The notes beneath the pieces are model-generated. The model made no database searches and had not been told where the DNA came from. It was given only the letters and a program-made list of their open reading frames with translations. A stretch of DNA of 64,000 bases from Candidatus Heimdallarchaeum aukensis (GTDB lineage: Archaea > Asgardarchaeota > Heimdallarchaeia > Heimdallarchaeales > Heimdallarchaeaceae): NCBI GenBank assembly GCA_021513695.1, contig CP084166.1:2656001-2720000 (forward strand), given 5' to 3'. Positions 3 to 30,948 of the stretch are shown here, in pieces (the first letter of the stretch is position 1; every line of letters starts with the position of its first letter). A program made the position numbers and the translations under genes.

Positions 3-242
3 ACTGGCTGTCACTTTGGTGATTGTCACTATAAGACTGGTAATTACAAAGCATATAGACGTCTTTCGCTAGTCGCAAAGTTGTTAAAACAAGTTGGGGT
101 AAATCCTAAGAGATTTAGATTGACTTGGATATCAGCTACAGAAGCAGCAAAATTCGTAGAAGTGACTACAGAGATGGTAAATGATCTGAAAAAACTTCCT
201 CCTTACTGGAGAAATGGAAATGGAGGTAATACCAATGAATAA
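3..242 (+). CDS. mvhD: MvhD-like hydrogenase delta subunit, C-terminal fragment (5' end lies outside the window)
   Basis: Frame 3 is open from the window edge and reads TGCHFGDCHYKTGNYKAYRRLSLVAKLLKQVGVNPKRFRLTWISATEAAKFVEV... The GCHxGDCHY..GN and RxxLxWxSAxE pattern is the conserved core of the methyl-viologen-reducing hydrogenase delta subunit. The stop TAA at 240-242 overlaps the next gene's ATG at 235. It is absent from the ORF track because no start codon lies in the window. Confidence 0.7.
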   Translation, partial: TGCHFGDCHYKTGNYKAYRRLSLVAKLLKQVGVNPKRFRLTWISATEAAKFVEVTTEMVNDLKKLPPYWRNGNGGNTNE

Positions 243-1233
243 ATTAAAGGTTGCAGTGGCTCTTGGCGCAACTTGTGCAGGTTGTGACGTGGCTATCTTA
301 GATTTGAATGAAAAAATACTAGATGTTATAGAGATAGTAGATTTTGTTTTCTGGCCAACAGCTATGGATTTCAAGCTTGAAGATCTAAAGGCATTAAAAG
401 ATGGTGAAGTAGACGTAGGTTTATACCATGGAGCTATAGGTACAGAAGAAGATGAAGAAATAGCAAAAATATTAAGAAAGAAGTCGAAAGTAGTAGTGGC
501 CTTTGGAGCTTGTGCTAATTTTGGTGGGATACCAAGTCTAACAAATATGCCTTATGAATCAAAAATATTCGATGTGGTTTATAAGGAAAGTCCATCTACT
601 TCAAATCCTGAAGGAACTGTACCTCTAAAAGAAACAGAGGTAGAAGGAACAAAGTTGACTTTACCTGGAATTAGAAAAAGAGCAGATTCTTTGAATAGTG
701 TTATCGATGTAGATTATTACGTTCCAGGCTGTCCTCCTATGGTTCCTTTGATAGAACAAGTGGTAGACATTTTGAGAGTTTTTGTTGAAAAAGGAACTTT
801 ACCTCCTAAAGGAGCTGTTATCGCTGGGCAAGATACACTATGTAAGGAATGCGGAAGAACTAAACCAGAAACCATCTCTTACACAGAGTTTCTCTCTCCA
901 CAAGAAGTGAAAGAGATTGACCCTGACCTTTGTCTTCTATCACAAGGAATTTTGTGTTTAGGACCAGCAACACGTTCTGGTTGTGGAGGATTATGCACAA
1001 GCATGAATGTTGGTTGTAGAGGATGTTTAGGACCAACAGATAAAGTTGATGATCATGGTCTAAAAATGATTTCAGCTCTAACATCACTTTTGGACGTAGA
1101 GCATGAAGAAGAGTATACAGAAGAGGAACTAGATAAATTAATAGAAAAAATCCCAGACCCATTAGGAACATTTTATCGATTTACTTATGGAGTCTCCATG
1201 ATCTCTAAATTACATCCTGATATGGAGGAATAA
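235..1233 (+). CDS. mvhG: [NiFe] hydrogenase small subunit, F420-non-reducing (Mvh/group 3c-like) type
   Basis: The N-terminus reads MNKLKVAVALGATCAGCDVAILD, followed by further Cys clusters (VPGCPP, CKECG, CLGPATRSGCGGLC, GCRGCLGP). It sits between mvhD and the large subunit. GGAGG lies 7 nt upstream of ATG 235, so 235 is preferred over the track start at 214. Confidence 0.8.
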   Translation: MNKLKVAVALGATCAGCDVAILDLNEKILDVIEIVDFVFWPTAMDFKLEDLKALKDGEVDVGLYHGAIGTEEDEEIAKILRKKSKVVVAFGACANFGGIPSLTNMPYESKIFDVVYKESPSTSNPEGTVPLKETEVEGTKLTLPGIRKRADSLNSVIDVDYYVPGCPPMVPLIEQVVDILRVFVEKGTLPPKGAVIAGQDTLCKECGRTKPETISYTEFLSPQEVKEIDPDLCLLSQGILCLGPATRSGCGGLCTSMNVGCRGCLGPTDKVDDHGLKMISALTSLLDVEHEEEYTEEELDKLIEKIPDPLGTFYRFTYGVSMISKLHPDMEE

Positions 1234-1235
1234 AA

Positions 1236-2723
1236 ATGAATCAAAAATTAAATCCAAATATCGTGACTATTGAGCCAGTCACAAGATTAGAAGGATTAGC
1301 AAAAATAACAGTACTTCTTAATGATGAAGGAAATGTAAAAGATGCTTTTTATCAAGTAGTAGAACTCAGAGGTTTTGAGCGTTTTGTTCAAGGAAGACCA
1401 ATTGAGGAAGTATTGAGAATCACACCAAGAATATGTGGTGTATGCCCCATACCTCATCATCTTGCACCAGCAAAAGCAGCAGATAGGGTATATGGGGTCG
1501 ACCCTCCTAAAACTGCAAAATTATTAAGAGAAATGCTAGCTTTGGGACATATTGTTCATAGCCATATTTTGCATTTCTATGCTTTTGCTCTTCCTGATTT
1601 TGTACTAGGAGAAAAGAAAGAACCAGGAACGCATAACATAATTGGTATAGCAAAAGCATTTCCTGATGTGGCGAAAGCTGCCATTAAAGCAAGAGGAGAT
1701 GCCCAAAAAATACAAGCAATGATTGGTGCAAAAGCAACTCATCCTGTTACTGTAATTCCAGGAGGAATAAGTAAAGGAGTAACGAAGGAAGATACAGAAA
1801 AGATATTAGAAATGAGCAAGAATATCGTTGAATTCGGTAAACTGGGTCTTAAGGTCTTTGAAGATTTAGTAGTTAAAAATAAAGATCAAATGGATCTTAT
1901 AAACAGTGACGCCTATCAGATGGATACCTATTATATGTCAATTGTAGGCCCCGATAATACGCTCGATTTCTATAATAGTCAAACAGTTAGAGTAATTGAC
2001 AGTAAAGGAAAAGAATTTGCAAAATTTGAAGCAGAAGATTATTTAGACCATTTAGATGAACATGTTGAACCATGGACATATCTCAAGTTCCCCTATTTGA
2101 AAAAGGTAGGTTGGAAGGGACTTGTTGATGGACCGGATAGTGGTATGTATAGAGTAAATGCTTTAGCACGATTGAACGTTATAGATAAGATAACAACACC
2201 TCTCGCCCAAGAAGCAATGGAAATTATGTATGAAGGTCTAGGTGGAAAACCTGCTCATCACACTTTAGGTTTTAACTGGGCTAGGTTAGTGGAAATACTA
2301 TACAGCGGTGAGAGAATGGTTGAACTAGCTGAAGATCCTGACTTTTATGGTACAAAGTTCAGAGAACAGCTAACCAAGGATATGATTACAGGTGAAGGGG
2401 TGGGAGCCATAGAAGCACCAAGAGGAACTTTATATCATCACTATAAGACTGATAAAGAAGGAAAAGTAACCAAAGCTAATATCATAGTAGCAACCACCAA
2501 CAATAATGCTGCGATTTGTTTAAGTGTGAAAAAAGCCGCTCAAGAAATGATTAAAAACGGTCAGTATAATGAGGATGGCTTAAATAAAATAGAGATGGCT
2601 TTTAGAGCTTATGACCCTTGTTTAGCATGTGCTACCCACGCCATGGTTGGACAAATGCCACTGAAAGTAGAAATATATGATTCTAAGAAAAATAAGATTA
2701 GAGAGTTGACACGTAAACTATGA
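1236..2723 (+). CDS. mvhA: [NiFe] hydrogenase large subunit (Mvh/group 3-like)
   Basis: The N-terminal Ni-ligand motif RICGVCPIPHH and the C-terminal DPCLACATH (DPCxxCxxH) are both present. The start lies 3 nt after the small-subunit stop. Confidence 0.9.
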   Translation: MNQKLNPNIVTIEPVTRLEGLAKITVLLNDEGNVKDAFYQVVELRGFERFVQGRPIEEVLRITPRICGVCPIPHHLAPAKAADRVYGVDPPKTAKLLREMLALGHIVHSHILHFYAFALPDFVLGEKKEPGTHNIIGIAKAFPDVAKAAIKARGDAQKIQAMIGAKATHPVTVIPGGISKGVTKEDTEKILEMSKNIVEFGKLGLKVFEDLVVKNKDQMDLINSDAYQMDTYYMSIVGPDNTLDFYNSQTVRVIDSKGKEFAKFEAEDYLDHLDEHVEPWTYLKFPYLKKVGWKGLVDGPDSGMYRVNALARLNVIDKITTPLAQEAMEIMYEGLGGKPAHHTLGFNWARLVEILYSGERMVELAEDPDFYGTKFREQLTKDMITGEGVGAIEAPRGTLYHHYKTDKEGKVTKANIIVATTNNNAAICLSVKKAAQEMIKNGQYNEDGLNKIEMAFRAYDPCLACATHAMVGQMPLKVEIYDSKKNKIRELTRKL

Positions 2724-3226
2724 AAATAGCAATTATCGGCCTGGGAAACCCCATTGTTGGGGATGATGCTGTCGGAATAAGAGTCTTAGATTACATAAAA
2801 GAGAATAAGACTCTTCCTTCCTTTGTAGACATAATGGTCGATGTAAGCCTTTCTGGAATAGGTTTAGTTGAACTATTCAGAGGATATGACAAAGTGATAA
2901 TAATTGATTCTATGCAATCTAATCAATTTGAACCAGGTACAGTTCTAAGACTCAACCCTGACCAATTTGTAAGTGCATTACACGTTTCAGATTATCATAA
3001 TATGGACTTTTTTACTGCTTACGAATTCGGTAAAGAGATATATGATGATTTACCACCAAATGAACAAATTGTTATCCTCGGAATTGAGATTAATTATATT
3101 ACTGAATTTAGCGATCAGCTATCTCCAGAAATAAAGTCAAAATTTGATGATATTGTAAATGATGTTTATCAATTTATTAAAAAAGAAATAAATCAAGAGA
3201 AGGAGATTATACGCAATGTCCTTTGA
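2720..3226 (+). CDS. hydrogenase maturation endopeptidase (HycI/HoxW/FrhD family)
   Basis: MKIAIIGLGNPIVGDDAVGIRV is the typical N-terminus of this protease family. At 168 aa it is the expected size. Its ATG overlaps the mvhA stop (ATGA). Confidence 0.8.
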   Translation: MKIAIIGLGNPIVGDDAVGIRVLDYIKENKTLPSFVDIMVDVSLSGIGLVELFRGYDKVIIIDSMQSNQFEPGTVLRLNPDQFVSALHVSDYHNMDFFTAYEFGKEIYDDLPPNEQIVILGIEINYITEFSDQLSPEIKSKFDDIVNDVYQFIKKEINQEKEIIRNVL

Positions 3227-3629
3227 ATATATAAAAATAGGAAAAGAAGAAAAAGAATTCATTAGTAAAATAGAAGATATCAGCGGACAGAATCTATATG
3301 CATGTTATCAATGTGGAAAATGTACCGCTGGATGTTCTTTTAGTAATCAGATGGATCTTACAGTAAACCAAGTTATTCATAGATTACAACTTGGGCAAAA
3401 AGAAAAAGTGCTGAGTGCAAAGAGTCCTTGGGTATGTGCGAGTTGTTTGACTTGTACAGTTAGATGCCCACGAGATATTGACGTAGCTGCAATAATGGAG
3501 TCAGTAAGAGAATACATTCTACGTTATGAACCTGAGAGAATAGAAAGAATGAAAGTTACAGGAGAAAAAGCTAAAAACTTGCCTAACATTGCCCTCGTAG
3601 GTAGTTTTAGGAAGAATACTGAATTATAA
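3216..3629 (+). CDS. hdrC: HdrC-like di-[4Fe-4S] protein
   Basis: It carries two ferredoxin-type motifs, CYQCGKCTAGC and CASCLTCTVRCP. It overlaps the upstream gene by 11 nt and directly precedes an HdrB-like gene. Confidence 0.7.
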   Translation: MSFEYIKIGKEEKEFISKIEDISGQNLYACYQCGKCTAGCSFSNQMDLTVNQVIHRLQLGQKEKVLSAKSPWVCASCLTCTVRCPRDIDVAAIMESVREYILRYEPERIERMKVTGEKAKNLPNIALVGSFRKNTEL

Positions 3630-3641
3630 TAGGTGAATTAA

Positions 3642-4532
3642 ATGAAATATTCATATTTTCCAGGATGTAATCTCAAAACAAATGCAAAGGAATATGAACA
3701 TACAGCTGTTGAAGTTTCTAAAATATTAGATGCTGAACTTGTAGAAATGCCAGTGTTTAATTGCTGTGGGACAGTTCATAGTATGGCTTCAGATAATACT
3801 ATGAGGAGAATCGCCCCTGTACGTATTCTTTCAAGATCAGAAGAGCACCAAAAAGAGTTGGAAGATACAAATAACACAGTTGTAACTCTATGTTCCATGT
3901 GTAGTTCAACACTTAAAGTAGTAAATGAAGAAGTAAAAGAAGATGAAGAAATGCTACAGAAAATAAACTGGCAGCTAGAAAGAGATAACTTAAAATATTC
4001 TGGCCATTCGGAAGTCAAACACTATTTAGAAATACTTAGAGATGAAGTTGGTTTTGAAGAAATTGTTAAAAAGGTTAAAAAACAACTTAAAGGAATGAAA
4101 GTTGCTTCTTATTACGGTTGCATGCTGTTACACCCAGATAAAGCTAAAATTGATGACAGCGAAACACCAACAGTGATGGAAACCCTTACCCTTGCACTCG
4201 GAGCAGAAGTAGTTGATTGGCCTTATTTTAAAACTTGTTGCGGTTCTTACCATGTAGTAGACAAAGAAGATATCGTAAACAATCAAATTCTAAAAATAAC
4301 GGAGGGTGCTAAAAAAAGAGGAGCTAATGCTATAATTACTGCTTGTCCTTTATGTGCCTATAATCTTGATAGTCAGCAAGTATTTTTACAGAAAAAAGGA
4401 ATAATAAAAGAAACTATACCTATCTTCTACTTTACTCAACTTATGGCAATAGCTCTAGGAATAAAATTAGAAAATTTTGAAGATCATCATGTAGATCCTA
4501 AACCTTTACTAAAAAGTCTAGGATTAATTTAA
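3642..4532 (+). CDS. hdrB: HdrB-like protein with two CCG cysteine-rich domains
   Basis: It has two CCG-type domains: FPGC...NCCGT...CSMC and YYGC...TCCGS...CPLC. Confidence 0.75.
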   Translation: MKYSYFPGCNLKTNAKEYEHTAVEVSKILDAELVEMPVFNCCGTVHSMASDNTMRRIAPVRILSRSEEHQKELEDTNNTVVTLCSMCSSTLKVVNEEVKEDEEMLQKINWQLERDNLKYSGHSEVKHYLEILRDEVGFEEIVKKVKKQLKGMKVASYYGCMLLHPDKAKIDDSETPTVMETLTLALGAEVVDWPYFKTCCGSYHVVDKEDIVNNQILKITEGAKKRGANAIITACPLCAYNLDSQQVFLQKKGIIKETIPIFYFTQLMAIALGIKLENFEDHHVDPKPLLKSLGLI

Positions 4533-4549
4533 AAAAAAGAGGAATAAAA

Positions 4550-5272
4550 ATGGCAAAAGCAATATCAATGAGAGAAAAAAAGGAAAAACTTGACACAGTA
4601 ACCATATATATTATGGGTCAAGGATACAAAGTTCCTTCTTCTTTAACCATAATGAAAGCAATGGAATATGCTGGTTTTAAACTTAAAAGAGGAGTCGGTT
4701 GTCGTGCAGGTTTTTGTGGAGCATGTGCAACCGTTTATAGAAAATTAGGTGATTACAAAATATATGCTAACTTAGCATGTCAAACTAAAGTCGAAGATGG
4801 GATGTATCTCACACAATTACCTTTTGTTCCTGCTAATAAAGCAGAATACAATCTTGACGAGATTAAACCTTCAGCTTCAACAATGCTCCGTTTCTATCCA
4901 GAAATAGCAAGATGCTTAAGCTGTAATGCTTGTTCAAGAGTGTGCCCACAAGATATACAAGTAATGGACTATGTTCAATACAGCTTGCAAGGGCAAATAG
5001 AAAAAGCAGCAGAACTAGCTTTTGATTGTATTCAATGCGGTCTTTGCGCAATTCGTTGCCCAGCAGAGATTCCTCAATATCATGTGGCGACATTGGCACG
5101 AAGATTACATGGTAAATATCATATGATTGCTCCTGATACTCTAGAACAAAGAGTAAAGGAAATAGAAGAAGGAAAATACGAAAAAGGATTTGAAGAGTTG
5201 ATGTCTCTATCTGAAGAAGAATTGAAGAAACGATACGTTGCAAGAGACTTTATTGATCAGAAAAAGGCGTGA
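4550..5272 (+). CDS. succinate dehydrogenase/fumarate reductase-type iron-sulfur subunit (SdhB/FrdB/TfrB-N-like)
   Basis: It has a 2Fe-2S-like CRAGFCGACA plus two 4Fe-4S motifs, CLSCNACSRVCP and CIQCGLCAIRCP. It lies immediately upstream of the flavoprotein gene. Confidence 0.65.
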   Translation: MAKAISMREKKEKLDTVTIYIMGQGYKVPSSLTIMKAMEYAGFKLKRGVGCRAGFCGACATVYRKLGDYKIYANLACQTKVEDGMYLTQLPFVPANKAEYNLDEIKPSASTMLRFYPEIARCLSCNACSRVCPQDIQVMDYVQYSLQGQIEKAAELAFDCIQCGLCAIRCPAEIPQYHVATLARRLHGKYHMIAPDTLEQRVKEIEEGKYEKGFEELMSLSEEELKKRYVARDFIDQKKA

Positions 5273-6936
5273 GAAAAATGATTAGAGGATATCCAGAAAG
5301 TATGAGAAAAAGTATTGACAAAGTCAATAAAACAAGAGATAAGAGAATCGACCAAATTATGAAAGATTTGACTCTTGAAGAACGTGAGAAAGTATTAAAG
5401 GAATTTCACCCTGATTATAATCCAGCATATAAAAGAACTATAAGTTGGGGACAAAATAAAGGCGATTATGTTCCTAATGAAGTCGCAGATATACTGGAAT
5501 CATACCCAATCTATGATCCAGATGAGATAGATTTAAGTCAAATAGATTACGATGTTGGAATATTAATTATTGGTGCAGGAGGAGCTGGAACAGCTGCTGC
5601 TTTATGGTCTGTTTATTCTGGAGTGCCAAATGATAAGATCCTTCTAACAACTAAATTAAGGCTGGGAGACTGTAATACAGTTATGGCACAAGGAGGGATA
5701 CAAGCTGCTGATAGACCAGAAGATTCACCTTTAATTCATTATTTAGATGCTATGGGTGGAGGACACTTCAAAAATAAACCAGAGTTAGTAAAAGCACTTG
5801 TTTCAGATGGTCCCAAAATAATCAAATGGCATAAAGAACTAGGTTTAATGTACGATCAGAATGAAGATGGAAGTTTTGTAGAAAATGCTGGAGGAGGAAC
5901 ATCTAGAAACAGAATGCACTGCGCAAAAGATTATACAGGAATGGAAATTTTCAGAAATCTAAAAGATGAAGTTATTAACAATGAGATACCTTTATTGGAA
6001 TTTTCACCTGCAGTAGAATTGCTAAAAGATGAAAATGGAAGAGTAGCTGGTGCATTGTTATATAATCTAGAAACAAAAGAATATTCCGTCGTAAGAGCAA
6101 AAACAACCATTTTAACAACAGGAGGTTTTGGAAGATTACACATCGCAGGATTTGCAACAACAAATCACTATGGGGCAACAGGAGACGGAATAGTTATGGC
6201 TTATAGAGCAGGAGCTAAACTAAGAGATTTAGACTCAACACAGTTCCACCCAACAGGAGCAGCTTTCCCTGAACAAATAGTAGGTCTGTTAATTACTGAA
6301 AAAGTAAGAAGTTTAGGAGCACAAGTTTTAGGAAAGAATGGAGAACAAATCTGCTATCCACTAGAACCAAGAGATGTAGAGGCTGCTTCAATAATAAGAG
6401 TAACAAAAAGTACAGATAATTATGTTGAAACTCCAACAGGAATGAGAGGAGTCTGGTTAGATAGTCCATTAATTGAAGAAATCAGAGGAAAGGGAACAAT
6501 TGATAAGAATCTTGCTGCAATGAAAAGAATGTTTGCAAGGTTTGATATTGACATGACAGAAGATCCCATACTTGTTCATCCAACCCTTCATTATCAGAAT
6601 GGAGGAGTGGAACTCGATGAAAATGGATATACTTCTGTACCAGGTTTACTAGGCGCAGGTGAAATAAGCGGAGGAGTACATGGAAAGAATCGTCTTATGG
6701 GTAACTCTCTGCTTGAGGTCAATGTTTTCGGTAGACGAGCAGGTATAACTGCTGCTAAAGAATATAAACGAGGTAAAAAACCAGGCAAACTTACTTTATC
6801 ACATGTAAAGAAAACTATTGAGCAATTAGATGCTCTAAACATTAAGAAAAAACGCTTTTCACCTATCATTCTTCCAGAATATCGTAGTGAAGCAGTAAGA
6901 GACAGATTAATTCAACTATTTGAATCTAGTCTCTAA
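5269..6936 (+). CDS. succinate dehydrogenase/fumarate reductase-type FAD flavoprotein (SdhA/FrdA/TfrA/NadB family)
   Basis: The motifs IGAGGAGTAAAL, MAQGGIQAA, HCAKDYTGMEI, TTGGFGR..GATGDGIVMAYRAGA..QFHPTG, HYQNGGV and GEISGGVHGKNRLMGNSLLEVNVFGRRAG are colinear with the family. There is a ~95-aa N-terminal extension before the FAD fold. GTG 5269 overlaps the upstream stop, and ATG 5278 is an alternative start. Confidence 0.75.
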   Translation: MRKMIRGYPESMRKSIDKVNKTRDKRIDQIMKDLTLEEREKVLKEFHPDYNPAYKRTISWGQNKGDYVPNEVADILESYPIYDPDEIDLSQIDYDVGILIIGAGGAGTAAALWSVYSGVPNDKILLTTKLRLGDCNTVMAQGGIQAADRPEDSPLIHYLDAMGGGHFKNKPELVKALVSDGPKIIKWHKELGLMYDQNEDGSFVENAGGGTSRNRMHCAKDYTGMEIFRNLKDEVINNEIPLLEFSPAVELLKDENGRVAGALLYNLETKEYSVVRAKTTILTTGGFGRLHIAGFATTNHYGATGDGIVMAYRAGAKLRDLDSTQFHPTGAAFPEQIVGLLITEKVRSLGAQVLGKNGEQICYPLEPRDVEAASIIRVTKSTDNYVETPTGMRGVWLDSPLIEEIRGKGTIDKNLAAMKRMFARFDIDMTEDPILVHPTLHYQNGGVELDENGYTSVPGLLGAGEISGGVHGKNRLMGNSLLEVNVFGRRAGITAAKEYKRGKKPGKLTLSHVKKTIEQLDALNIKKKRFSPIILPEYRSEAVRDRLIQLFESSL

Positions 6937-7642
6937 AGTCTTTAACGACTATTTTCTTTTTTTCCATCTCTTTTTCTAATAATCTTATTGGAAATATTTT
7001 TCCATGTGAAGGATAAAGCCATTTTACACCTTCATCTATTAGTTTTTTCCAACTTTCGTATATCTTTTCCTTTTTATTTGCGACTATAGGAAAATAGCTT
7101 CTTCCTGAAAGCAAAGGAAACTTCATAACTATGTCTCCTACAAAAGCATGTTTTTGTTTAAAAATTAATGAAATTGAACCATCAGTATGACCTAATGTAT
7201 GAATTATCTTAGCATCAAATCCATATTCTTTTAGGGAAAATTCATCACTTACTTTAATATCAACAGAAAAAGGAGCTATCTCACGCTTTGTAGAAGAAAA
7301 AATCTTCTTAAGCAATTTATTAGTTAAAACTGCTTCTGGTGTATCTCCCTTTTCCACTAATTCAGCCTCTATTTTGTGCATTAAGACTTTTGCTCCTGTA
7401 ATCTCTTTTATCTCTTTTACAGAACCAATATGGTCTATATGTGCATGTGTAATGATAATTAGCTTGATATTTTCTGGTTGAATAGAATTTTTTTGTAAAA
7501 AATGAACTATCTTTTTATGACTTTTTGGCATTCCTGTATCAACTAAAATACAATTATTATTCTCTTTTATTAGAAAACTATTGACATAACCCAATTTTAT
7601 TCTATGGATAGAAACCATACTTACCAAAGAAAGTTCTTGCAT
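6926..7642 (-). CDS. MBL-fold metallo-hydrolase
   Basis: It has the HxHxDH motif (THAHIDHIG) and a later HTLGHTDGS. It is 238 aa. Confidence 0.75.
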   Translation of the reverse strand: MQELSLVSMVSIHRIKLGYVNSFLIKENNNCILVDTGMPKSHKKIVHFLQKNSIQPENIKLIIITHAHIDHIGSVKEIKEITGAKVLMHKIEAELVEKGDTPEAVLTNKLLKKIFSSTKREIAPFSVDIKVSDEFSLKEYGFDAKIIHTLGHTDGSISLIFKQKHAFVGDIVMKFPLLSGRSYFPIVANKKEKIYESWKKLIDEGVKWLYPSHGKIFPIRLLEKEMEKKKIVVKDFRD

Positions 7643-7924: not shown

Positions 7925-9310
<1,386 letters not shown>

Positions 9311-9394: not shown

Positions 9395-10801
9395 TTAGAT
9401 AAAATCTCCCGTTTCTATTTTCTGTGGGAGGTAGAAGTTTGTAATAAATTGTGGGTCACGTGCATTTAATGCTTGTATTTCTGCTTTATAACCTGTATTT
9501 ATTAGGATTTCAAGTTGTTCTTGCCATTTTGGTTTTCTCTTTACGAACTCTTCTTCAAGCATTAACTTTGATCTTCTTATGTCTTTTTGAGTCATTTTGA
9601 TTAGTGCTTCTCTAGGAATATCAAATCCACTTTCAGGTTTTAGATCACTTGGGAGCAAACCTAACCATTTAATATTTGGCACTGCAAGATGGGTTGATTC
9701 GAAACTAAGAGCTTTACTTCCAACGCTATATACTCTCATGATTTCGAATCCGTAAGGGTCAGCATCCATAATGGCAAGAATAGGTAATTGTAAGTCATCA
9801 TTTATTTTCTTTAGAAACTGTCTTGTTGCCATGTCAGGTTGACCTTTAGCTGTAACTAAAATGCTTGGTACATAATCGTAAAAATGGTCTTCTGCTAACC
9901 TGTTAAAAATAGCATCTTTTTCAATAACTAAACAAAATTCAGCATCACTTTCTAAATCTTCGATGTCATCTATATTTGGTGAAATAGCTTTTCCTGAACC
10001 GATAGCTCTACAATCTATAAGATCACCCTTTTCCTTGAATTGTAACTTTCCTACAACAATACCTTTAGACGATGCACTAACATTTAGTGAAGTCCTCGTA
10101 GCTTGTATCATTGCTCCTAAATCTTCAATAAGAGAGTCTGATACTGCTTGTTTCTTAAACGCATTCACATTCATGTAGAAAATATCTCTTTTTGTACTGT
10201 GAATATCACGTGATAGTATGTCATGAAGAAGTCTCATTAATATTGACATTTGTTCAATCGTGCTTACAGAGGATAAACTCCTAAATTGGCGTTCTATCAT
10301 TTGTCTACCAATAAGTACTAATTCTTGTTCTTCATCAAAACCAATATTTCTCTTTCCTCTTGAAGGAATTTTAAAACTAGCTTCATCAGGTTTGTTAAGT
10401 GCTTCATTCAAAAATAATAATGCTGCTTCAACAATTTTATTTTTAGCTTTTTCCGAAGACATTGTTTCTACATTAGTTACACCATAAGGTAACTCATAAT
10501 CCTGCAATAAAGTAAGTTCGTTTCTAAGTTTCCTTATTTTATCAACTGGAACTTTTCTTTTTATTTCAATTCTCATTAATTCTTTCTTAAGAGGATAATT
10601 ACCTAAGGTTTTACCTTTCTCTAGAGGATACCACTTCTTTCCGCTTCTCAAAAAGAGTACAAAAGATCCTTTTTTAAGTTCAAATTCTTCTTGTAATATT
10701 TGAAATAATTCATTTATCTGAATACTGTTATCAAAACTCATTTTTACTTCAGTTGAAGGCAATATTGTTGCATTTTTTACTAAAAAATTATAGTTTACCA
10801 T
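9395..10801 (-). CDS. top6A: DNA topoisomerase VI subunit A (Spo11 family) with N-terminal extension
   Basis: It has the catalytic-tyrosine motif STKRDIFY (Tyr209 by my count), the Toprim Glu in CLVIEKDAIF, and the Toprim DxD in IMDADPYGFEI. At 468 aa it is about 100 aa longer at the N-terminus than the ~370-390-aa archaeal enzymes. Confidence 0.9.
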   Translation of the reverse strand: MVNYNFLVKNATILPSTEVKMSFDNSIQINELFQILQEEFELKKGSFVLFLRSGKKWYPLEKGKTLGNYPLKKELMRIEIKRKVPVDKIRKLRNELTLLQDYELPYGVTNVETMSSEKAKNKIVEAALLFLNEALNKPDEASFKIPSRGKRNIGFDEEQELVLIGRQMIERQFRSLSSVSTIEQMSILMRLLHDILSRDIHSTKRDIFYMNVNAFKKQAVSDSLIEDLGAMIQATRTSLNVSASSKGIVVGKLQFKEKGDLIDCRAIGSGKAISPNIDDIEDLESDAEFCLVIEKDAIFNRLAEDHFYDYVPSILVTAKGQPDMATRQFLKKINDDLQLPILAIMDADPYGFEIMRVYSVGSKALSFESTHLAVPNIKWLGLLPSDLKPESGFDIPREALIKMTQKDIRRSKLMLEEEFVKRKPKWQEQLEILINTGYKAEIQALNARDPQFITNFYLPQKIETGDFI

Positions 10802-10810: not shown

Positions 10811-13800
10811 TCATTTTGTACTCCTTTTTTTGGTTTCAATTTTTGTATCAGCTGAAATTTCATCTAAAGTTGTTTGTTTTGTTCGCTTTGAAGTTGTTGT
10901 TTTCTTTGTTGTTGTACTTGGTCTCTTTGTTTTAGTAGTCGTTGTTTTCTTTGTTGTTGTACTTGGTCTCTTTGTTTTAGTAGTCGTTGTTTTCTTTGTT
11001 GTTGTACTTGGTCTCTTTGCTTTGGTAGTCGTTGTTTTTACAAAAGGAATTGTCTGTTTGATCTTCTTTATATCATTATAAGTCATCTCTAGCTTTCCTT
11101 CAAGCTGAGATGTCGGATAAGCAATAAATTCTCCAATTGTATTAATTCCAAGTGAGTTCAACTTATTTCGTATTTGCTGTTTAACATCTAATTTTTCTAT
11201 TGGCTCTTCTATTAACTTTAGTAATTTTTGAACATTTTTGTTTTTGAAAATATCTTTTCTCTTCGTACGATTATCAGCAAATATCAACTCTTCAAACGAA
11301 GATATCCCTATTTCTTTTAATTTTGATATAATCTCACTGCTCATAAATGGTGTACTTTTCACTATTTGCGTTTTACCCTTCTTTGCAATTTTTAGAGATT
11401 GAGGAGTTAAAGTTGCAAAATAGTTTCTTAACTGCCTTTCTGTTATATTAGTAATTTCAGTCAGTTCGTTAATTTTTGTATTAAAAACATCCCAGAGAGA
11501 ATACTTCTGTTTATGGTATAATTTAAAGATACTGTTTGGTTTATCCTGCATTAGTGCATAGAATGAGTAAATTGGGTATGAAAGAAGTTCTTTTAATGTG
11601 GATATCTGTCTGATTGATAACTCTGTTTGTTCTTTAATTCTCTTATCAGAAACTGATAAATGTATAATGTGGGAATACCCACCGTTTTCCAATATGGATT
11701 TTTCAGTATCTGAAAATAGACCTAAATCTTTAATCCTATAGCTATTTAGTTCTAATTGCTCTTTCACTTTAGTCATGTTAAGAGAGTTAAGAAGTTCAGT
11801 AAATTCTGCACGTTGTTTTTCTGTAAATTTAATCTGTAAATCATCTATATTTTGTAGGAAGAAAAGATCATAAACTTGTTCATAACCTCTTTTTGCTAGT
11901 TGAAAAAGTATATTCTTTTGACGTATAAATAATGCTAATGATGCTCTAAAACAAGAAAGAACATCTTTTACTTTCATGGATAAGTCGCTGATATTTTTCT
12001 CTTCAAACAAAGCAATTAGTTCACCTAATGAATTTATATCATTTTCATTTAGCTCGTTAATTATTTCTTTATCGTTTACAAAATCTATAAGTTTAGAATT
12101 GCTTTGAGATGCTAATGAATCTAGATCATGGAACGGAATTTGAGATAAAAGGTTTTTAAGGACAGTTATGTTTGAAGATTTATTTAATAATAGTAAATCA
12201 TAAACTGTTTTTGTATTACTTTTTAGTAGAAGCCTAAATGTTTCCTTACTCTCAAAGACAAGTGGAAGAGAGTAAATTTTTTGTTCAATTCTTAAACGGA
12301 GTTTTTCCGTGATCTTCCATCTCTTTGAAGTTTTTGATTTTGATACAATATTAAACACGTAAGCCTCTTCTATAGAGAAAATGTGACCTTGACTTAAAAC
12401 ATCTAATTCAGTTTTATCCAAAATTGTTTCAGGAATGGGGGTTAACTTAGATGCTAGAGTACGTAATGTTTCTAGTGATAGATTTCGAATCTGACGTATT
12501 AGTCTATTATCGTCGATTATCTGACTTAACTGGTATCTAGGTTTTAAAATTAAATCTCCTATTGTTAAGTTGCCATATTGTTTGAATTTCTCTTTATTTT
12601 CAAAACTTTCATTGACTAGCAAAATAACATGCCTATTTAGAAATTGTAAGTATTCATTAAAGTGTAAAGTTATGGTCTCTGGGAAAGAACTTGTAATTTT
12701 GTCAAATTGCTTTTTATCATATTTCTCCAAGAGAAGTAAGGATTCAAGGGTATATTGGACTTTTAGTTCATCTTTTTCAGGAAGATTCAACTTTTCTTCG
12801 AATTTGGTTGGTTTTGAGAAAATAAATGAGTAAATATCAAGTAGTCTCTTGGATACTTGAGAATTTACTTTTAGAGAATCATGATGTATATTGAAGAAAA
12901 CTAATTGTTGAAAACTTAAGTCTGGGAGTTTTTCGTCAAAATATCGCGAAGAGAGTTTTTGTAAAAGTCCAATTTTTGTTCTTAATGAAGGTGAAAGGTT
13001 AGAAACAACATCAGTGTTTTCAAAGAGATCAAGATAATTCTTAATACCATTTTCTCTCAATTCAGCAATATCAAAATCTTGTAGAACAATGTTTGTTTTT
13101 AGAGCAGGGGGGTTGCTTATTCTAGAAATAGTAATCTTACTAAGAAAAGTGTCAACTTCACTAATGTTTGTGCTTATAATTTTTGCAAGAGCTGGCTTAG
13201 ATAACAAAAGCATTTCTTGTAGAGTACTTACTTTGGATAAAAGTTTTAACCAATTTTCGAGAGGAAGTTGTGGGAAAGAAATCAGATAAATAGATTTGTT
13301 TAATATCTTTTGAACATTATTTCGTAATTTACTTCTCAATTTACAGTGTTTTTTTGATAAATCATAAACCAAATCGTCAATAACTGTATAATATTTCAGT
13401 AATTTTTTCTTTGTTTCACTATCAAACAGCATAATATTGGAAAGTTGAACTCTTTTATCTCTCAATTTTTTAATTGTTTTAACATTCAAAGTTGAGAGAA
13501 CATGATTAACTTTCTCAAGTTGTTTTTCTGATAAGAATGAAGAATATGAAATAGGTTTAATTAGTAAATCCTTTAGTGTTTCGATTTTATGTTCATTCAG
13601 TTTTTCTACTTCTTTTTCAGTGAAATCTGTTATTATAGAGACAGAACTGTTAAGGAGGTTTAGAATCTCTAATCCTGTTTTAGTAAGAAACTCTTTGTTC
13701 ATGTATAAAACAGAAATAAAATCAATGATATTTGAGATCTCTGGAATTTCAATGTTTTTGCTGAATAAGTTTTTTGAATTAATAGTACCAAGAAAATCTT

Positions 13801-16800
13801 TTGTCTTTAACGTAAGAGATAATGTTTTCTTTTTATCTTTAATCAGATTACTAATTATGGTGTTATAATCACCAAAGCTGACTAGTTGATCGTTTTTAAC
13901 AAGATCTCTGATGGTGAAAAGATTGTTGTCAAAGTATTTTGTTTCAATCTCTTCAAATTTTAAGGAGTTAATAGAGCTTAAGAATAGGATTGATGTATCT
14001 AAAATTTGTTTTATTTTTGTTCTTATTTTTTCTATCTTTTTAATATCATAAAGCCAGTTGTATATTGAATTCTCTTCTAAATCTGAAAAACTATAGAATC
14101 CATAAGATAACAAAGTAGATTTTTCTTTTTCACTAAGAAATGGTAAATCTACAAAATGATTTGGCTTATCTTTTTCAATTGTTTTCTTGATTTTATCAAT
14201 CTTTATTGATGAGCGTAGTTTCAATATTTGATCAAGTTTAATCCTTGATTCTTTTGCGACTGTTTTATACGGAATAAGCAGTAGATCTGCGATAGTGTAT
14301 GTTCCACCTTTTTTAAGGTTAGTTTCTATTTTCTCTTCTAGTCCTAAATATCGAATATTGGCTAGTAAATATGGGCTAATTTCTGCAAATATGCTCTTAT
14401 CTTTTAGATTAACATCTCCAAGTAATTCTTGATAAGATAAGTACCCAAGTTTCATTGCTTTTTCTTCATATGAACCTAAAGGAGGAATAAAACTTTCAAG
14501 ATGTAGATTTTTTAACATTGATAGACTTGATAAAATTTCATCAACCATTGCATCATCTAGATTTTGGATAGAGGAAATAACATCTATAATGTAAACTAAC
14601 TTCTTGTTATAACAAGATTTTATTGTATCTAATGTCAATATAGGTAGATTGTTTATGTTTCTACTTAATTTCATTCTAATATCTTTAATTTCTTCAATGT
14701 ATGAATCTGGTAGGCTTAAGAAAAACTCTTCAGGGAAGTAATATAGATATTCAATTGAGAAAACTCCCAAACTGTATAGCTTTTGAACTAATGACTTATT
14801 TAACTTTAAGTTTGCAATATCAAGAGTAGAGAATTGAAGGGAAGATAGATTCCTAATGAAAAGAGAATTGTTCTCTTTTATGGCTTTATCCAATTTTGGG
14901 AGAAGGGTTTCCCACAGGTGAATAGGAATATGAAGGTAGTCATAATATGTTTTTTTATTTTTTAAAGATTCATTAATATTTTTTGTTGAAATCCCGAGTA
15001 TACGCTCAATTGTCTTTATTGGTGTAAAGAGAATAGGTATATTCACTATCAACTTTTCTTTTTCATCTTTGTTTATTTCTAATTGATCTACATCATGATA
15101 AAATAGTTGAATTAAAGAGTAAATCTCATTTTCATTAAGATATTCGATTGTAGAAACCTCGGGTTTTTTGATTGTTTTTGGACTAGTACCTTCTTTAGCT
15201 TCACGTTTTTTAATAAGTGGAAGTTTACCCTCTTTTGTTAGTTCTTTTTCAGTTAAGGATGGTAAAAGGTTTAAGTCGATTCCATAGAGTTTAAGTTCAG
15301 AAACAATATTTCTTTTACTAATCTGTAATTTAATAGTGTTTATCTCTTTATACTCTATTTCAAATAATTTACCCAAAGAAACTGATGGAATAGATAAAAA
15401 TTCAAGTATAGTGTTAATCTTATTTTCAAAGAGAATAGAGTTTTGTTGCAATGAAAGTGAACTTAAGAAGGAAATTGGAGTTGTTCCAAACAATGAGAGA
15501 GTCTTTTTTATTGATGATAAATTCTTATCTTCTGAACTGTAATCCTGTAAACAAAGAAGTTGATCTAAATACTCAATATTAATCTTTTTTAGATATAGCT
15601 TCTGTTGTTTGGACAAAAATTTTACATCACGTAACTTAATTGCCCATTTAGGTATTTGAAAATCAGATAAAGAACTTACTACATATTCTGCTAGTTCTAT
15701 GTCAATATTGTCTGGAGGAAGAAGTAATAAATCAAGAATAAGTTTTTTATCTTCCTTCATCAAATTTCTCAAAAACTCAAGCTGATCTATTTGAGAAAAT
15801 TTATCTAACCAAATAATTGGATATTTTACCATACTTGTAAGAGAATTAGAATTACTAAAGAGAATTTGAGAACTTATGACAAATGGTTGAGGAAGCAGAT
15901 CTAGTAGATTAATAACATCGGGAGAGGTCTTAATGTCTAGTTTATCACTTTTATTTGATAGAATGTCCAGATGATCTTTGGGAATTAAGTTAACTAATTT
16001 TTCTTTAGAAAATTCTTTTACAAAACGGATAATCTCACTTCTAGCATTTGATGGAATAGTTCTCTTTTCTTCAGAGCTAAGAGTAAGAAGTTCAATAATA
16101 TTTTTAACTCCATTTTTCCATAAATCAAGTTTGACGTCTAAACTCATGTCTGAGATAGAAAAAATATTTAGACATAAACCATAGATTAGTTCTTCAAGTT
16201 TAGCAATACTACTCGCTTTTTCTATTTTTTCACTTTCTGAGAATATAAGCAAGTATTCTGGTACCAACCCAAAGATATCTTCAAATGATGCTTTTGAAAG
16301 GTTGAATTTAAAGTCTGTGAGTGTACTTATTAATTCTTTATCTTCTTCAAGAATAGGTATGCCTGAACTAAGGCTTATGTTTCCCTTTCTTTTATCTTTT
16401 AACTCTTCAGGAATGGAATTGAATATCTTCTTAAGATCTTTTTCTCTAACTATAAAGAGGTCAATAACTCGTAGAATGCGGTTTTTTGCAAGACTACGTT
16501 TAATAAAGCGTGAAAGGTTTGAAATTCTGAAGACTGAAGAGTTACAAAGAGAGAGAAAATTATCAATATTTTCCTTAAATTCTTCAGAAAATGATTTTAT
16601 TTGATAACAAAGACCATAAAGATCTTGAACTGTGTCCTTATTCAGTTTTTGTAAGCTAAGAAGATTTCTCTTTGACAATAACGCAAGAGATTCAAGTTTT
16701 ATTCCTTTTTCTTCAACTTCATTTAGTATTTTTTTAACTGAAATATTTTCTTTTATTTTGATAATTTCAGTTTCAGGTATGTCTAAAATTAATGATATCG

Positions 16801-29637: not shown

Positions 29638-30948
29638 ATGGAAGAAAATTCAAAAACTCTTGTTAGTGGGATTAAAGCAAATTTAGTATATCCAGAATCT
29701 AAAGTAAAACCAGTCTTTAATTTTGAAAATATGATAGTTGAACATTATAAACGATTTCCACGAACTGCAGTTTTAATCGAAAATCCAAAATATGCAAAAG
29801 CTCTAATGAACCCTCTAAAATCATTTTATCTAGTACCTATTGCCATTTTCAAAGTCAAATTTAATACTGTTCTCTCAATGAAATTTTGGAATTATATCGC
29901 TTTGTGGTTATACATCCTTATTGTTTCTATTCCTAACTCTGTTTTTATGTATATAACGTTTAGTAGCAACAAAATTTTGGGAGACATAACTTTTTCAGTT
30001 ATTATACCCATGTTGGTTTCATCCCTAGTAGCTCTTTGGTATTTGAAATTTACTCATGATGGTTTCTTTGGATTGATTATAGAGAAAAAAGTTGAATGGT
30101 TAGAAAAGCCTGTAAAAGAATATTATGATAAATATTATGATAAAAAATTTAGCTTAAATATTGTTTTAGTTGTTTTAAGTGTCTTAACATCATTAGGAGT
30201 GGGAATTCCTGTATTAATTTATGCTTCAAGTCAAGGTTTACAATCTGCAATTATATTTGGAGTTATAGGAATGATTTGTAATTTCGTAGTTTTTTATATT
30301 TTCTACTTATCTTTACAATATACTATATTAAACACCAAAATCTATTCTAAAGTATTAAACGCAATAAAAAGTAGAATTGATATCTATCTCAATGAGTATG
30401 GAACTTTGTTAAATAGTGAAAATTACGAAATTATTTGGGCTCTAGGAGATACCCCTGGAAGATCAATAAGGCAGCTTGAAAATATACCCGTGGCTGGAGT
30501 GTTATCTGCGTTAATAGTAACAATTGCCATGTTGATGGGAACAATTAATCAAGCAGTCCTTGGAGTAGTCAAAGGGAATATGCCAACAGTGAATGTATTC
30601 AATTCGCAAATGAGTCTTAACGCAATAATAGCTGCAATCTCCCTAGTTATAGCTATCATAATAGTACTAATTGTTGTTCTTCCATTGTATATCTTCAGTG
30701 GAAAAATGAAGAAATTCAAAATTAAAGCTTTAATAGAACTTGATAACTATATTTTTGCAAATGTAATGGAATTTGAACAACGCTATTCTGAACTTGCAAA
30801 GCAAGAAACAGTAACAATATTTGCTCTCAGAGAGTATATATCGGGTATGAGAACAATTCCTATTTCAGCAGCAAAGATTATCAAAAGTTTAACAGCTGTT
30901 GCAGTATGGTTTGTAAATGTCCGAAAAATAATTAGAGCGTTTAATTAA
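29638..30948 (+). CDS. polytopic membrane protein of unknown function (upstream partner of the tubulin/FtsZ-like gene)
   Basis: It is 436 aa with many long hydrophobic segments, for example IALWLYILIVSIP, ITFSVIIPMLVSSLVALWYL, IVLVVLSVLTSLGVGIPVLIYA, IIFGVIGMICNFVVFYIFYL and IIAAISLVIAIIIVLIVVLPLYIF. I recognised no family motif. Its stop lies 10 nt before the next ATG. Confidence 0.5.
   Translation: MEENSKTLVSGIKANLVYPESKVKPVFNFENMIVEHYKRFPRTAVLIENPKYAKALMNPLKSFYLVPIAIFKVKFNTVLSMKFWNYIALWLYILIVSIPNSVFMYITFSSNKILGDITFSVIIPMLVSSLVALWYLKFTHDGFFGLIIEKKVEWLEKPVKEYYDKYYDKKFSLNIVLVVLSVLTSLGVGIPVLIYASSQGLQSAIIFGVIGMICNFVVFYIFYLSLQYTILNTKIYSKVLNAIKSRIDIYLNEYGTLLNSENYEIIWALGDTPGRSIRQLENIPVAGVLSALIVTIAMLMGTINQAVLGVVKGNMPTVNVFNSQMSLNAIIAAISLVIAIIIVLIVVLPLYIFSGKMKKFKIKALIELDNYIFANVMEFEQRYSELAKQETVTIFALREYISGMRTIPISAAKIIKSLTAVAVWFVNVRKIIRAFN

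Follow-up and report, generated by a model that had tools for sequence, protein, structure and literature searches.

The stretch of DNA considered here, which we call the window, comprises 64,000 nucleotides (nt) of the genome of the Asgard archaeon Candidatus Heimdallarchaeum aukensis (assembly GCA_021513695.1, contig CP084166.1, positions 2,656,001 to 2,720,000). It opens with a compact gene cluster for an Mvh-type [NiFe] hydrogenase, heterodisulfide reductase (Hdr)-like proteins and a flavoprotein reductase with its iron-sulfur (Fe-S) subunit. An earlier note, made from the letters of the window alone, had described eight co-directional genes between positions 3 and 6936 with tight junctions. 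Both statements hold: the coordinates are the same, Pfam and NCBIfam profile matches identify the genes (Table 1), and every junction is an overlap or a gap of at most 17 nt. The mvhD reading frame, with its stop codon at 240-242, overlaps the mvhG start codon at 235, a start that is itself ambiguous (ATG at 214, 220 or 235; the public gene call uses 220). The mvhA gene follows mvhG after 2 nt and shares an ATGA (2720-2723) with the protease gene, which in turn overlaps the hdrC-like gene by 11 nt (3216-3226). Gaps of 12 and 17 nt separate the hdrC-like from the hdrB-like gene and the latter from the Fe-S gene, and the last junction is a GTGA (5269-5272). Instead of the GTG at 5269, the flavoprotein may start at the ATG at 5278, as does the public Ca. 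Heimdallarchaeum aukensis protein P0001 (552 amino acids), which is 100% identical to it. The operon ends at 6936, where a convergent gene for a protein of the metallo-beta-lactamase fold (6926-7642, minus strand) overlaps it by 11 nt. A scan for bacterial sigma-70 promoters and terminators gave counts at or below the shuffled expectation, which carries no meaning for an archaeal host.

Table 1. Genes at the start of the window, with positions counted from its first nucleotide.
Gene or product	Start	End	Strand	Match or feature
mvhD, 3' part	3	242	+	Pfam FlpD, E=2e-21
mvhG, small subunit of group-3c-type [NiFe] hydrogenase	235	1233	+	Oxidored_q6, E=2e-24
mvhA, large subunit of [NiFe] hydrogenase	1236	2723	+	NiFeSe_Hases; VhuA model, 400 bits
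Hydrogenase maturation endopeptidase	2720	3226	+	HycI, E=7.5e-11; TIGR00072, 95 bits (cut-off 47, passed)
hdrC-like two-[4Fe-4S] protein, short form	3216	3629	+	Two CX2CX2CX3C motifs
hdrB-like protein	3642	4532	+	Two CCG domains (ligands for two non-cubane [4Fe-4S] clusters)
Fe-S subunit of reductase	4550	5272	+	Pfam Fer2 and Fer4 matches
FrdA/TfrA-like flavoprotein	5269	6936	+	FAD_binding_2, E=5e-61

Besides the 64-kb window, the DNA examined included 4.7 kb of upstream sequence from a second contig, L001, reached through P0001. L001 overlaps the window by 10,925 nt without a single difference and extends upstream of it by the length just given. The earlier note had remarked that the window lacks HdrA, guessed that its gene may lie upstream of the window and advised looking there, and this is where it was found: hdrA (L001 2534-4495, 653 amino acids, outside the window) ends 5 nt before mvhD. 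The whole mvhD gene (L001 4501-4965, 154 amino acids) begins 222 nt upstream of the window, which keeps its last 79 codons. Ahead of hdrA lie korA, korB and korG for a 2-oxoacid:ferredoxin oxidoreductase (Kor), with korA incomplete at the end of the retrieved stretch; the junctions from korA to mvhD are gaps of 3, 8 and 5 nt and one 4-nt overlap. From the identity of the two sequences and the gene order on L001 it follows that the window begins inside a 12-gene array, with the "missing" hdrA directly upstream. The window thus holds the downstream two-thirds of a predicted operon, korA-korB-korG-hdrA-mvhD-mvhG-mvhA-protease-hdrC-hdrB-FeS-flavoprotein.

The Hdr and Mvh proteins encoded here are predicted to make up a complete set of the bifurcating type. 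A full-length HdrA is encoded alongside the other Hdr subunits, aligning over residues 3-651 with solved methanogen HdrA structures (E=1e-206, 691 bits). MvhD matches both the C-terminal MvhD part of HdrA2 and VhuD, and the top NCBIfam score for HdrA and MvhD of this genome is that of the HdrA2 model (819 + 160 bits). Among solved structures, MvhA comes closest to subunit A of Mvh in the Mvh-Hdr complex of methanogens (5odc_F, E=1e-118, full length, 400 bits), while a sulfhydrogenase reaches 119 bits only. An exact-match search with the MvhA sequence returned no entry. MvhA carries the N-terminal RICGVC and C-terminal DPCLAC metal-binding motifs and falls below the VhuA equivalog cut-off of 800 bits; MvhG scores best on VhuG, where its 179 bits fall short of the 450 required. 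All parts of an MvhADG module are therefore present, namely an Mvh-type large subunit with its Ni-Fe cysteine pairs, a small subunit and MvhD. In the published account of the Ca. Heimdallarchaeum genome, the cytosolic hydrogenases are two sulfhydrogenases (SHY I and II), and Hdr, Mvh and fumarate go unmentioned (PMC8813620). By sequence, the hydrogenase described here belongs to the Mvh (group 3c) type.

The two CCG domains of the HdrB-like protein and the two [4Fe-4S] motifs of the HdrC-like protein retain their full complement of 10 and 8 cysteines, respectively. The HdrB-like protein (296 amino acids) aligns over its entire length with HdrB of methanogens in solved structures (9sfi_C, E=1e-32; 5odc_B; 117 bits), and all 10 cysteines are conserved in 98-100% of 62 homologues. 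It scores alike on the models for HdrB (148 bits, cut-off 345) and for the SdhE subunit of 8-methylmenaquinol:fumarate reductase (MFR; 152 bits), both times below the cut-off. At 137 amino acids, as against about 185 in methanogens, the HdrC-like protein lacks the C-terminal 50 residues or so; its match to the solved HdrC 8rvv_C covers residues ~10-103 of the latter (E=4e-18, 69 bits). It scores 66 bits on TIGR03290 (below the cut-off of 160) and has all 8 cysteines conserved in 58 homologues. The acceptor end of the set (HdrB 117 bits, HdrC 69 bits) is far more diverged from the methanogen proteins than are HdrA (691) and MvhA (400).

The Fe-S protein encoded next (240 amino acids) bears an N-terminal [2Fe-2S] motif, C-X4-C-X2-C...C, that resembles the N-terminus of TfrB and SdhB, followed by two complete CX2CX2CX3CP motifs. 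All 12 of its cysteines are invariant in 77 homologues. The N-terminal part matches positions 19-85 of the TfrB model (E=1.5e-11), and a phmmer search with the subunit against solved structures returned only generic matches of the ferredoxin type and no SdhB. The label "FrdB-like" given in the earlier note is thus apt for the [2Fe-2S] domain, but the remainder is a generic ferredoxin domain with two [4Fe-4S] clusters. In TfrB the Fe-S part and two CCG domains share one polypeptide, and the TfrB model accordingly takes in both the Fe-S protein (44 bits) and the CCG protein (31 bits), far from its cut-off of 385; here each part has a gene of its own, the CCG gene coming first. In P0123, the Fe-S protein is naturally fused to a flavoprotein of a sister clade.

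The flavoprotein itself is about 30% identical to SdhA, FrdA, NadB and soluble fumarate reductases and passes no NCBIfam equivalog cut-off. It scores highest on the TfrA model NF004900, with 309 bits over positions 7-425 of 546 where 718 would be required, and reaches 261 bits on the nadB model TIGR00551, where the cut-off is 453. All the residues that mark the fumarate/succinate site of SdhA and FrdA are nevertheless in place: H327, T343, E344, R368, H441 and R475 correspond to E. coli SdhA His242, Thr254, Glu255, Arg286, His354 and Arg399, and all six are invariant in 60 family members. Judged by these residues, the protein is a C4-dicarboxylate enzyme. The histidine that binds flavin adenine dinucleotide (FAD) covalently (SdhA His45) is replaced by Asn136, which is invariant in the family; the same position holds Gly in P0189, a protein that passes the TfrA cut-off, and His in E. 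coli FrdA and SdhA and in PRK07803 proteins. The lack of this histidine is a trait of TfrAB, but the full-length architecture and the equivalog score of TfrA are wanting. Enzymes with non-covalent FAD are able to reduce fumarate but are poor at oxidising succinate.

Pfam finds no Succ_DH_flav_C match, and the whole C-terminal domain of the SdhA/FrdA/NadB/TfrA type is absent. Neither the window part of the operon nor the upstream genes on L001 include a membrane anchor gene. The hallmarks of a membrane-bound complex II (8-alpha-histidyl FAD, C-terminal domain, anchor genes) are accordingly all missing. At the other end, the earlier note had remarked on an N-terminal extension of ~95 residues, and its boundary is borne out by the Pfam domain and by E. 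coli SdhA, both of which begin to align at residue ~98. The extension is conserved and cysteine-free, and AlphaFold2 models it as a folded domain (per-residue confidence score pLDDT 82-97 over residues 1-100; 84 overall). The best fold match of the model is E. coli FrdA (1kf6_A), with ~455 aligned columns, which leaves the extension without a counterpart there.

An HMMER scan of 1.84 billion representative proteins, in which twenty relatives were labelled with NCBIfam, recovers the family as one 50%-identity cluster. Next come sister groups, 39-45% identical, in which the N-terminal extension is largely present (78-91 aligned residues), and beyond them ordinary relatives of SdhA, TfrA and NadB. 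A distance-based neighbour-joining tree that includes E. coli FrdA, SdhA and NadB gives the family 100% bootstrap support, and gives the same support to a larger clade whose members have neither the FAD-binding histidine nor the C-terminal domain. The family clade is separate from P0189. The earlier note had named grouping with NadB among the outcomes that would speak against its reading, and the tree places the NadB pair (100%) outside the larger clade. These groupings indicate that the family is a distinct branch, neither TfrA nor NadB. The column of NadB Glu121, which we take to be a NadB-specific position, holds Gly in the flavoprotein. We rejected an identity as L-aspartate oxidase (NadB) given this residue, the tree, the score of 261 against 453 bits, the constant Fe-S partner and the gene neighbours described below. 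Five shorter flavoproteins of ~400-410 amino acids (P0151, P0154, P0163, P0165 and P0180) join the family in a clade with 100% support; they are devoid of both the N-terminal extension and the C-terminal domain and have Asn or Lys at the position of the FAD-binding histidine and Pro at that of Thr254.

The arrangement is by no means peculiar to this genome. Family-specific sequence patterns run over species-representative genomes gave at least 580 confirmed matches, and synteny was counted in the best 80 of these. There, open reading frames (ORFs) were labelled by BLASTP against the window proteins, and the other neighbours were clustered and one example per cluster scanned with Pfam. All 80 come from metagenome-assembled genomes of uncultured lineages from anoxic habitats. 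The archaeal carriers belong to Heimdall-, Loki- and Thorarchaeota, Thermoplasmata, Theionarchaea/Methanofastidiosa, Bathyarchaeia, Culexarchaeia and Thermoprotei, the bacterial ones to Acetothermia/Bipolaricaulota, WOR-3, Aerophobetes, Aminicenantes, Thermotogae, Chloroflexi, Spirochaetota and others. The search for the same synteny in relatives that the earlier note had called for was thus fruitful, with the arrangement recurring in dozens of species-level genomes across many archaeal and bacterial phyla, far beyond chance.

The Fe-S gene lies directly upstream of the flavoprotein gene in 80/80 loci, and the HdrB gene immediately precedes the Fe-S gene in 52/66. Among the 58 loci with at least 6 kb of upstream sequence, all 58 have the Fe-S gene, 49 (84%) HdrB, 48 HdrC, 48 (83%) HdrA, 44 MvhD, 33 (57%) Kor and 24 (41%) MvhA; Kor, HdrA and MvhA occur together in 16. 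At the 57 loci of at least 12 kb, Mvh is found in 26 (46%) and an NAD(P)H module resembling Flx in 10, but never both together. This Flx-like module consists of a PyrK/HydG-like NAD-binding [2Fe-2S] protein and a polyferredoxin (resembling FlxA and FlxB/C), and it also occurs in other Heimdallarchaeota (loci L009-L013). Such mutual exclusion would be expected if a mid-potential donor docks through MvhD or FlxD, and the module for electron input is, by this pattern of genes, predicted to be swappable.

In the same 57 loci, genes linked to the tricarboxylic acid (TCA) cycle recur. Class I fumarase alpha and beta subunits are encoded in 12 and 11, succinyl-CoA synthetase beta and alpha in 11 and 10, and malic enzyme in 11; at least one module of the TCA branch (Kor, fumarase, succinyl-CoA synthetase or malic enzyme) is present in 41 and at least two in 18. 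Some bacterial loci carry the full route in a single array; that of L067 reads KorG-HdrA-MvhD-MvhG-MvhA-HdrC-HdrB-FeS-Flav-KorD-KorA-KorB-ME-FumA-FumB-SucC. Across loci, the identities of HdrB, MvhA, KorB and KorG to the window proteins co-vary with that of the flavoprotein (r about 0.9). The flavoprotein and the Fe-S protein are the most conserved parts, with ~60% identity between archaea and bacteria. HdrA and MvhD are fused in bacterial relatives, and the fusion passes the HdrA2 cut-off (1143 against 1100). In many related clusters, giant proteins of two to four HdrA-like segments replace or accompany the ordinary HdrA of 650 amino acids, for example in L036 (1496 amino acids), L078 (1403), L024 and L037 (1105) and L053, L066 and L068 (~1000); duplicated HdrA fusions have been mentioned before (PMC11237513). 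In the window, a glutamate dehydrogenase gene (7949-9310, plus strand) lies just downstream of the operon. A functional link to this enzyme, a tempting next step after 2-oxoglutarate, was considered and dropped because the adjacency is not conserved, recurring outside this genome only in L077.

On balance we incline to the view that the operon encodes a soluble, flavin-based electron-bifurcating H2:fumarate/ferredoxin oxidoreductase that would feed 2-oxoglutarate synthesis. In this scheme, MvhAG would oxidise H2, and MvhD would hand the electrons to the bifurcating FAD of HdrA. One branch would run uphill to ferredoxin, the other downhill through HdrC and HdrB to the subunit with [2Fe-2S] and two [4Fe-4S] clusters, and from there to the non-covalent FAD of the FrdA-like subunit, which would reduce fumarate to succinate. 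Fumarate (about +30 mV) would then take the place that the heterodisulfide of coenzymes M and B (CoM-S-S-CoB, about -140 mV) holds in methanogens. The co-encoded Kor-type enzyme could spend the reduced ferredoxin, thereby given a destination, on the carboxylation of succinyl-CoA to 2-oxoglutarate. Since each fumarate reduced would yield as much reduced ferredoxin as the carboxylation of one succinyl-CoA takes up, one fumarate would pay for exactly one 2-oxoglutarate. With potentials of -414 mV for H2, +30 mV for fumarate and about -500 mV for ferredoxin, the reaction 2 H2 + Fd(ox) + fumarate -> Fd(red) + succinate (Fd, ferredoxin) is calculated to yield about -70 kJ/mol at standard potentials, and its reverse to cost about +70 kJ/mol, which makes the reverse feasible only at H2 below roughly 0.1 Pa.

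Gene content is established, as is the conservation of ligands, of active-site residues and of synteny; from this we infer that the subunits form a complex, that it works in the reductive direction and that HdrB passes electrons directly to the Fe-S subunit without a diffusible thiol. Thermodynamics and the missing histidine for covalent FAD both speak for the reductive direction. Direct transfer is favoured by the single HdrCB pair and the conserved adjacency of the HdrB and Fe-S genes, by the union of CCG and Fe-S parts in the one polypeptide of TfrB, and by type E complex II, whose CCG protein operates without a thiol. The inference of the earlier note, an H2-linked fumarate reductase mediated by CCG domains, is thus supported by the retained dicarboxylate-site residues, the separation from NadB and the synteny with HdrCB, HdrA and TCA genes, so far as sequence can tell. 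Its further suggestion, that this would be a fumarate reductase rather than a classical Hdr, needs amending: the fumarate module is supported, yet it does not stand instead of Hdr, since a complete HdrABC-MvhADG set of the bifurcation type is present too. A bolder version, which we advance tentatively and with rather more doubt than belief, is that HdrABC is here thiol-independent, that the non-cubane clusters of HdrB serve only as a relay or docking node, and that Mvh, Hdr and Frd, possibly with Kor, form one soluble megacomplex with fumarate as the bifurcation acceptor.

Several points weigh against a bifurcating H2:fumarate oxidoreductase tied to 2-oxoglutarate synthesis. Although Kor alpha, in the sequence from a Thermoplasmata relative, passes the equivalog cut-off for the alpha subunit of 2-oxoacid:acceptor oxidoreductase, Kor beta and gamma score best on 2-oxoglutarate/2-oxoacid models but below the equivalog cut-offs. 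The enzyme is therefore to be read as a predicted 2-oxoacid:ferredoxin oxidoreductase at family level, with 2-oxoglutarate as a candidate substrate. Neither Mvh nor Flx lies inside the retrieved flank at 21 of the 57 loci. The tree leaves two alternatives for how the flavoprotein family branches, at depth, with respect to the TfrA/Sdh and NadB groups (50% against 38% bootstrap). HdrB keeps both CCG motifs complete, which would suit thiol/disulfide chemistry as well as a pure relay. Finally, the lifestyle published for Ca. Heimdallarchaeum, oxidation of organics with release of H2 (PMC8813620), would favour the opposite direction.

This last point leads to the main rival, in which the same complex runs in reverse as a confurcating, H2-evolving succinate oxidase, with reduced ferredoxin, made as Kor oxidises 2-oxoglutarate, and electrons from succinate merging at HdrA to form H2. 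A fermenting or syntrophic Asgard archaeon could in this way run from 2-oxoglutarate through succinyl-CoA, succinate, fumarate and malate to pyruvate. Ca. Heimdallarchaeum has been predicted to oxidise organics by a partial TCA cycle and to dispose of the electrons as H2 (PMC8813620), other Asgard work reads Hdr-Mvh as an H2-evolving confurcating complex (PMC9723677), and the recurrent malic enzyme, fumarase, succinyl-CoA synthetase and Kor neighbours could serve either direction. The glutamate dehydrogenase gene just downstream in the window would also fit, but the adjacency recurs only at the one other locus noted above. We consider the reversal unlikely, if worth taking seriously, in light of the invariant Asn in place of the FAD-linking His, which by established knowledge makes for a poor succinate oxidiser, and of an H2 pressure that would have to be lower than is typical of methanogenic syntrophy. 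It is also conceivable, if quite unlikely in our judgement, that a thiol mediates between two enzymes. HdrABC-Mvh would then reduce a small or protein-bound disulfide, and the Fe-S protein and flavoprotein, with a CCG protein, would reoxidise the thiol on fumarate as a split thiol:fumarate reductase; the net reaction would be unchanged, with a diffusible carrier in between. The authors of work on a tubeworm-symbiont cluster raised this option (PMC6315080), and several features accord with it: the complete CCG motifs of HdrB, TfrA as the nearest named model of the flavoprotein, the span of the TfrB model over Fe-S and CCG parts, and a second CCG protein or second HdrCB pair beside the cluster in L007, L039, L041, L048 and L078. 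A gene for the lipoyl carrier GcvH, possibly a protein-bound dithiol partner of HdrB, is a neighbour at 5 of the 57 loci. Yet the operon in the window and most of its relatives have one HdrCB pair only, which would make and consume the same thiol and so be equivalent to direct transfer. Moreover, no gene for a carrier or its biosynthesis is conserved among the clusters, and synthesis of coenzymes M and B, not known in non-methanogens, has been flagged as an open problem (PMC8163825, PMC9723716). As an observation in its own right, GcvH genes lie near the cluster in 5-6 loci overall (L021, L026, L035, L041, L051 and L056), and a protein-bound dithiol role of GcvH has been suggested for Culexarchaeia (PMC9723716).

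A different substrate altogether, be it L-aspartate as in NadB or an enoate such as urocanate, mesaconate or acrylate, would make the Hdr link serve another pathway. That every NCBIfam equivalog cut-off is missed (TfrA 309/718, nadB 261/453), that the deep position in the tree is ambiguous and that the architecture is unusual, with an N-terminal domain gained and the C-terminal one absent, would all be in keeping with this. Against it stand the invariance of every fumarate- and succinate-binding residue, the absence of the NadB-specific Glu, the adjacent Fe-S gene in 80/80 loci, which NadB as an enzyme without an Fe-S partner would not call for, and the recurrence of fumarase and succinyl-CoA synthetase genes in the clusters, so that we regard it as very unlikely. 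A chance juxtaposition, in this genome, of hydrogenase/Hdr genes and reductase genes that have nothing to do with each other is scarcely credible in view of junctions that overlap or span at most 17 nt, an association conserved across archaeal and bacterial phyla, and module identities that co-vary across loci with r about 0.9.

Among described systems, the closest in gene content is the flxABCD-hdrABC-korABCD-tfrAB cluster of the reductive TCA cycle in Ca. Endoriftia, the Escarpia symbiont and Thioflavicoccus mobilis (Rubin-Blum et al., 2019, PMC6315080; Mitchell et al., 2024, PMC11636981). The proposal made there is that OGOR and a thiol:fumarate reductase receive electrons from a bifurcating complex (PMC6315080); co-expression of the cluster was reported later (PMC11636981), and the bifurcation idea was restated in 2026 (PMC13147460). 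By the published gene list, the likeness extends to a co-directional frdB/frdA-like pair, hdrC, hdrB, kor, hdrA and a subunit of the MvhD type (there flxD). The donor of the Endoriftia-type cluster is the NADH dehydrogenase FlxABC, whereas here the [NiFe] hydrogenase MvhAG and a protease take its place; and unlike the Endoriftia type, the present cluster belongs to an Asgard host and lies outside any reductive TCA cluster with ATP-citrate lyase. From its genes, it would be an H2-linked archaeal variant of the hypothesised Flx-linked system of tubeworm symbionts.

With MvhADG-HdrABC and TfrAB of methanogens such as Methanothermobacter, the overall logic is alike, and HdrA, MvhA, MvhD, HdrB and HdrC all have homologues in the solved complex. 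Methanogens reduce fumarate with the thiols CoM-SH and CoB-SH for 2-oxoglutarate synthesis, and Hdr-Mvh re-reduces the resulting heterodisulfide, making reduced ferredoxin. There, however, two enzymes are joined by a diffusible heterodisulfide, whereas here one operon encodes a single HdrCB pair. In contrast to methanogen TfrAB, the flavoprotein scores below the TfrA cut-off, has the N-terminal and not the C-terminal domain, and is accompanied by separate Fe-S and CCG proteins; HdrC is ~50 amino acids shorter than its methanogen counterpart. Type E succinate:quinone oxidoreductases and 8-methylmenaquinol:fumarate reductase (SdhABE) combine an SdhA/SdhB-like pair with an HdrB-like two-CCG protein, as here. 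The resemblance includes a four-cysteine motif of the Fe-S subunit at the classical SdhB 3Fe-4S site and the 152 bits of the window's HdrB on the MFR SdhE model. These enzymes differ in being membrane-associated and quinone-linked, with a full-length flavoprotein and without HdrA, MvhD or hydrogenase, but they offer a precedent for a CCG protein that serves a fumarate/succinate enzyme without a thiol substrate. HdrA2B2C2 of Methanosarcina acetivorans, whose HdrA is fused to MvhD, provides the best model for HdrA and MvhD here; there, F420H2 and ferredoxin serve to reduce CoM-S-S-CoB, and a fumarate module is lacking.

The five-subunit NADH:fumarate reductase of Hydrogenobacter thermophilus (Miura et al., 2008; cited in PMC13147460) is soluble and quinone-independent, serves the reductive TCA cycle and is reported to be irreversible. 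The additional subunits are other proteins, whose genes are scattered, and neither bifurcation nor a link to Hdr, MvhD or a hydrogenase is reported for it. The idea that this enzyme contains Hdr-like subunits was dropped, as the table of Aquifex subunits gives no support for it. The proximity of sdhA or tfr genes to hdr genes has been noted in passing for Thiomargarita, Culexarchaeia (PMC9723716) and Mnemosynellales, and in papers on Asgard archaea, Hdr-Mvh and a "cytoplasmic fumarate reductase" appear as separate entries and the Hdr substrate is left open (PMC9723677, PMC8163825). In the open-access literature we found no description of the hydrogenase-linked form, its occurrence in Asgard archaea, the architecture of the family's flavoprotein or the breadth of its distribution.

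Some other genes of the window deserve mention in their own right. A Top6A/Spo11 gene (9395-10801, minus strand) adjoins a giant ORF of 4184 amino acids (10811-23365, minus strand) that starts as topoisomerase VI subunit B, with a weak GHKL ATPase match at residues 38-135 and the Topo-VIb transducer at 352-518 (E=3.5e-57). It continues for ~3,600 repeat-rich amino acids with matches of the helix-hairpin-helix type (RAD51D_N, RNA_pol_A_CTD) and terminal KRPSTTTKKTTTT repeats; a Top6B of such size is very unusual. A fusion of 990 amino acids (32153-35125, plus strand) joins an FAD oxidase of the GlcD/D-lactate dehydrogenase type to a 4Fe-4S dicluster and two CCG domains (HdrD/GlcF-like), and is the second CCG-domain redox protein of the window. 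Upstream of it, an ORF of 379 amino acids (30959-32098, plus strand) has a weak match to the Tubulin/FtsZ GTPase domain (31.3 bits, just below the Pfam cut-off of 33), and a neighbouring ORF of 436 amino acids (29638-30948) has no match in Pfam. Further on, a gene for a caspase-domain (Peptidase_C14) protein with a bacterial Ig domain adjoins a subtilase gene (51720-52844 and 53029-54048, both on the minus strand).

Many non-methanogens, Asgard archaea among them, encode HdrABC-MvhADG without making CoM-S-S-CoB; their acceptor has been stated to be unknown (PMC9723716, PMC8163825). The operon described here and its relatives name a candidate acceptor, fumarate, and a candidate use of the reduced ferredoxin, the synthesis of 2-oxoglutarate. 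If the megacomplex exists as outlined, it would tell what Hdr-Mvh reduces in Asgard archaea and in hundreds of other non-methanogens, and it would imply that H2 is consumed for the anabolic fixation of CO2 into 2-oxoglutarate. This has a bearing on which way Asgard Hdr-Mvh complexes handle H2, by consumption or by release, and competing models for the origin of eukaryotes disagree on whether the archaeal host consumed or released it. With at least 580 matches among species representatives, an energy-saving and stoichiometrically matched link between fumarate reduction and CO2 fixation that depends on ferredoxin may be a common, overlooked trait.

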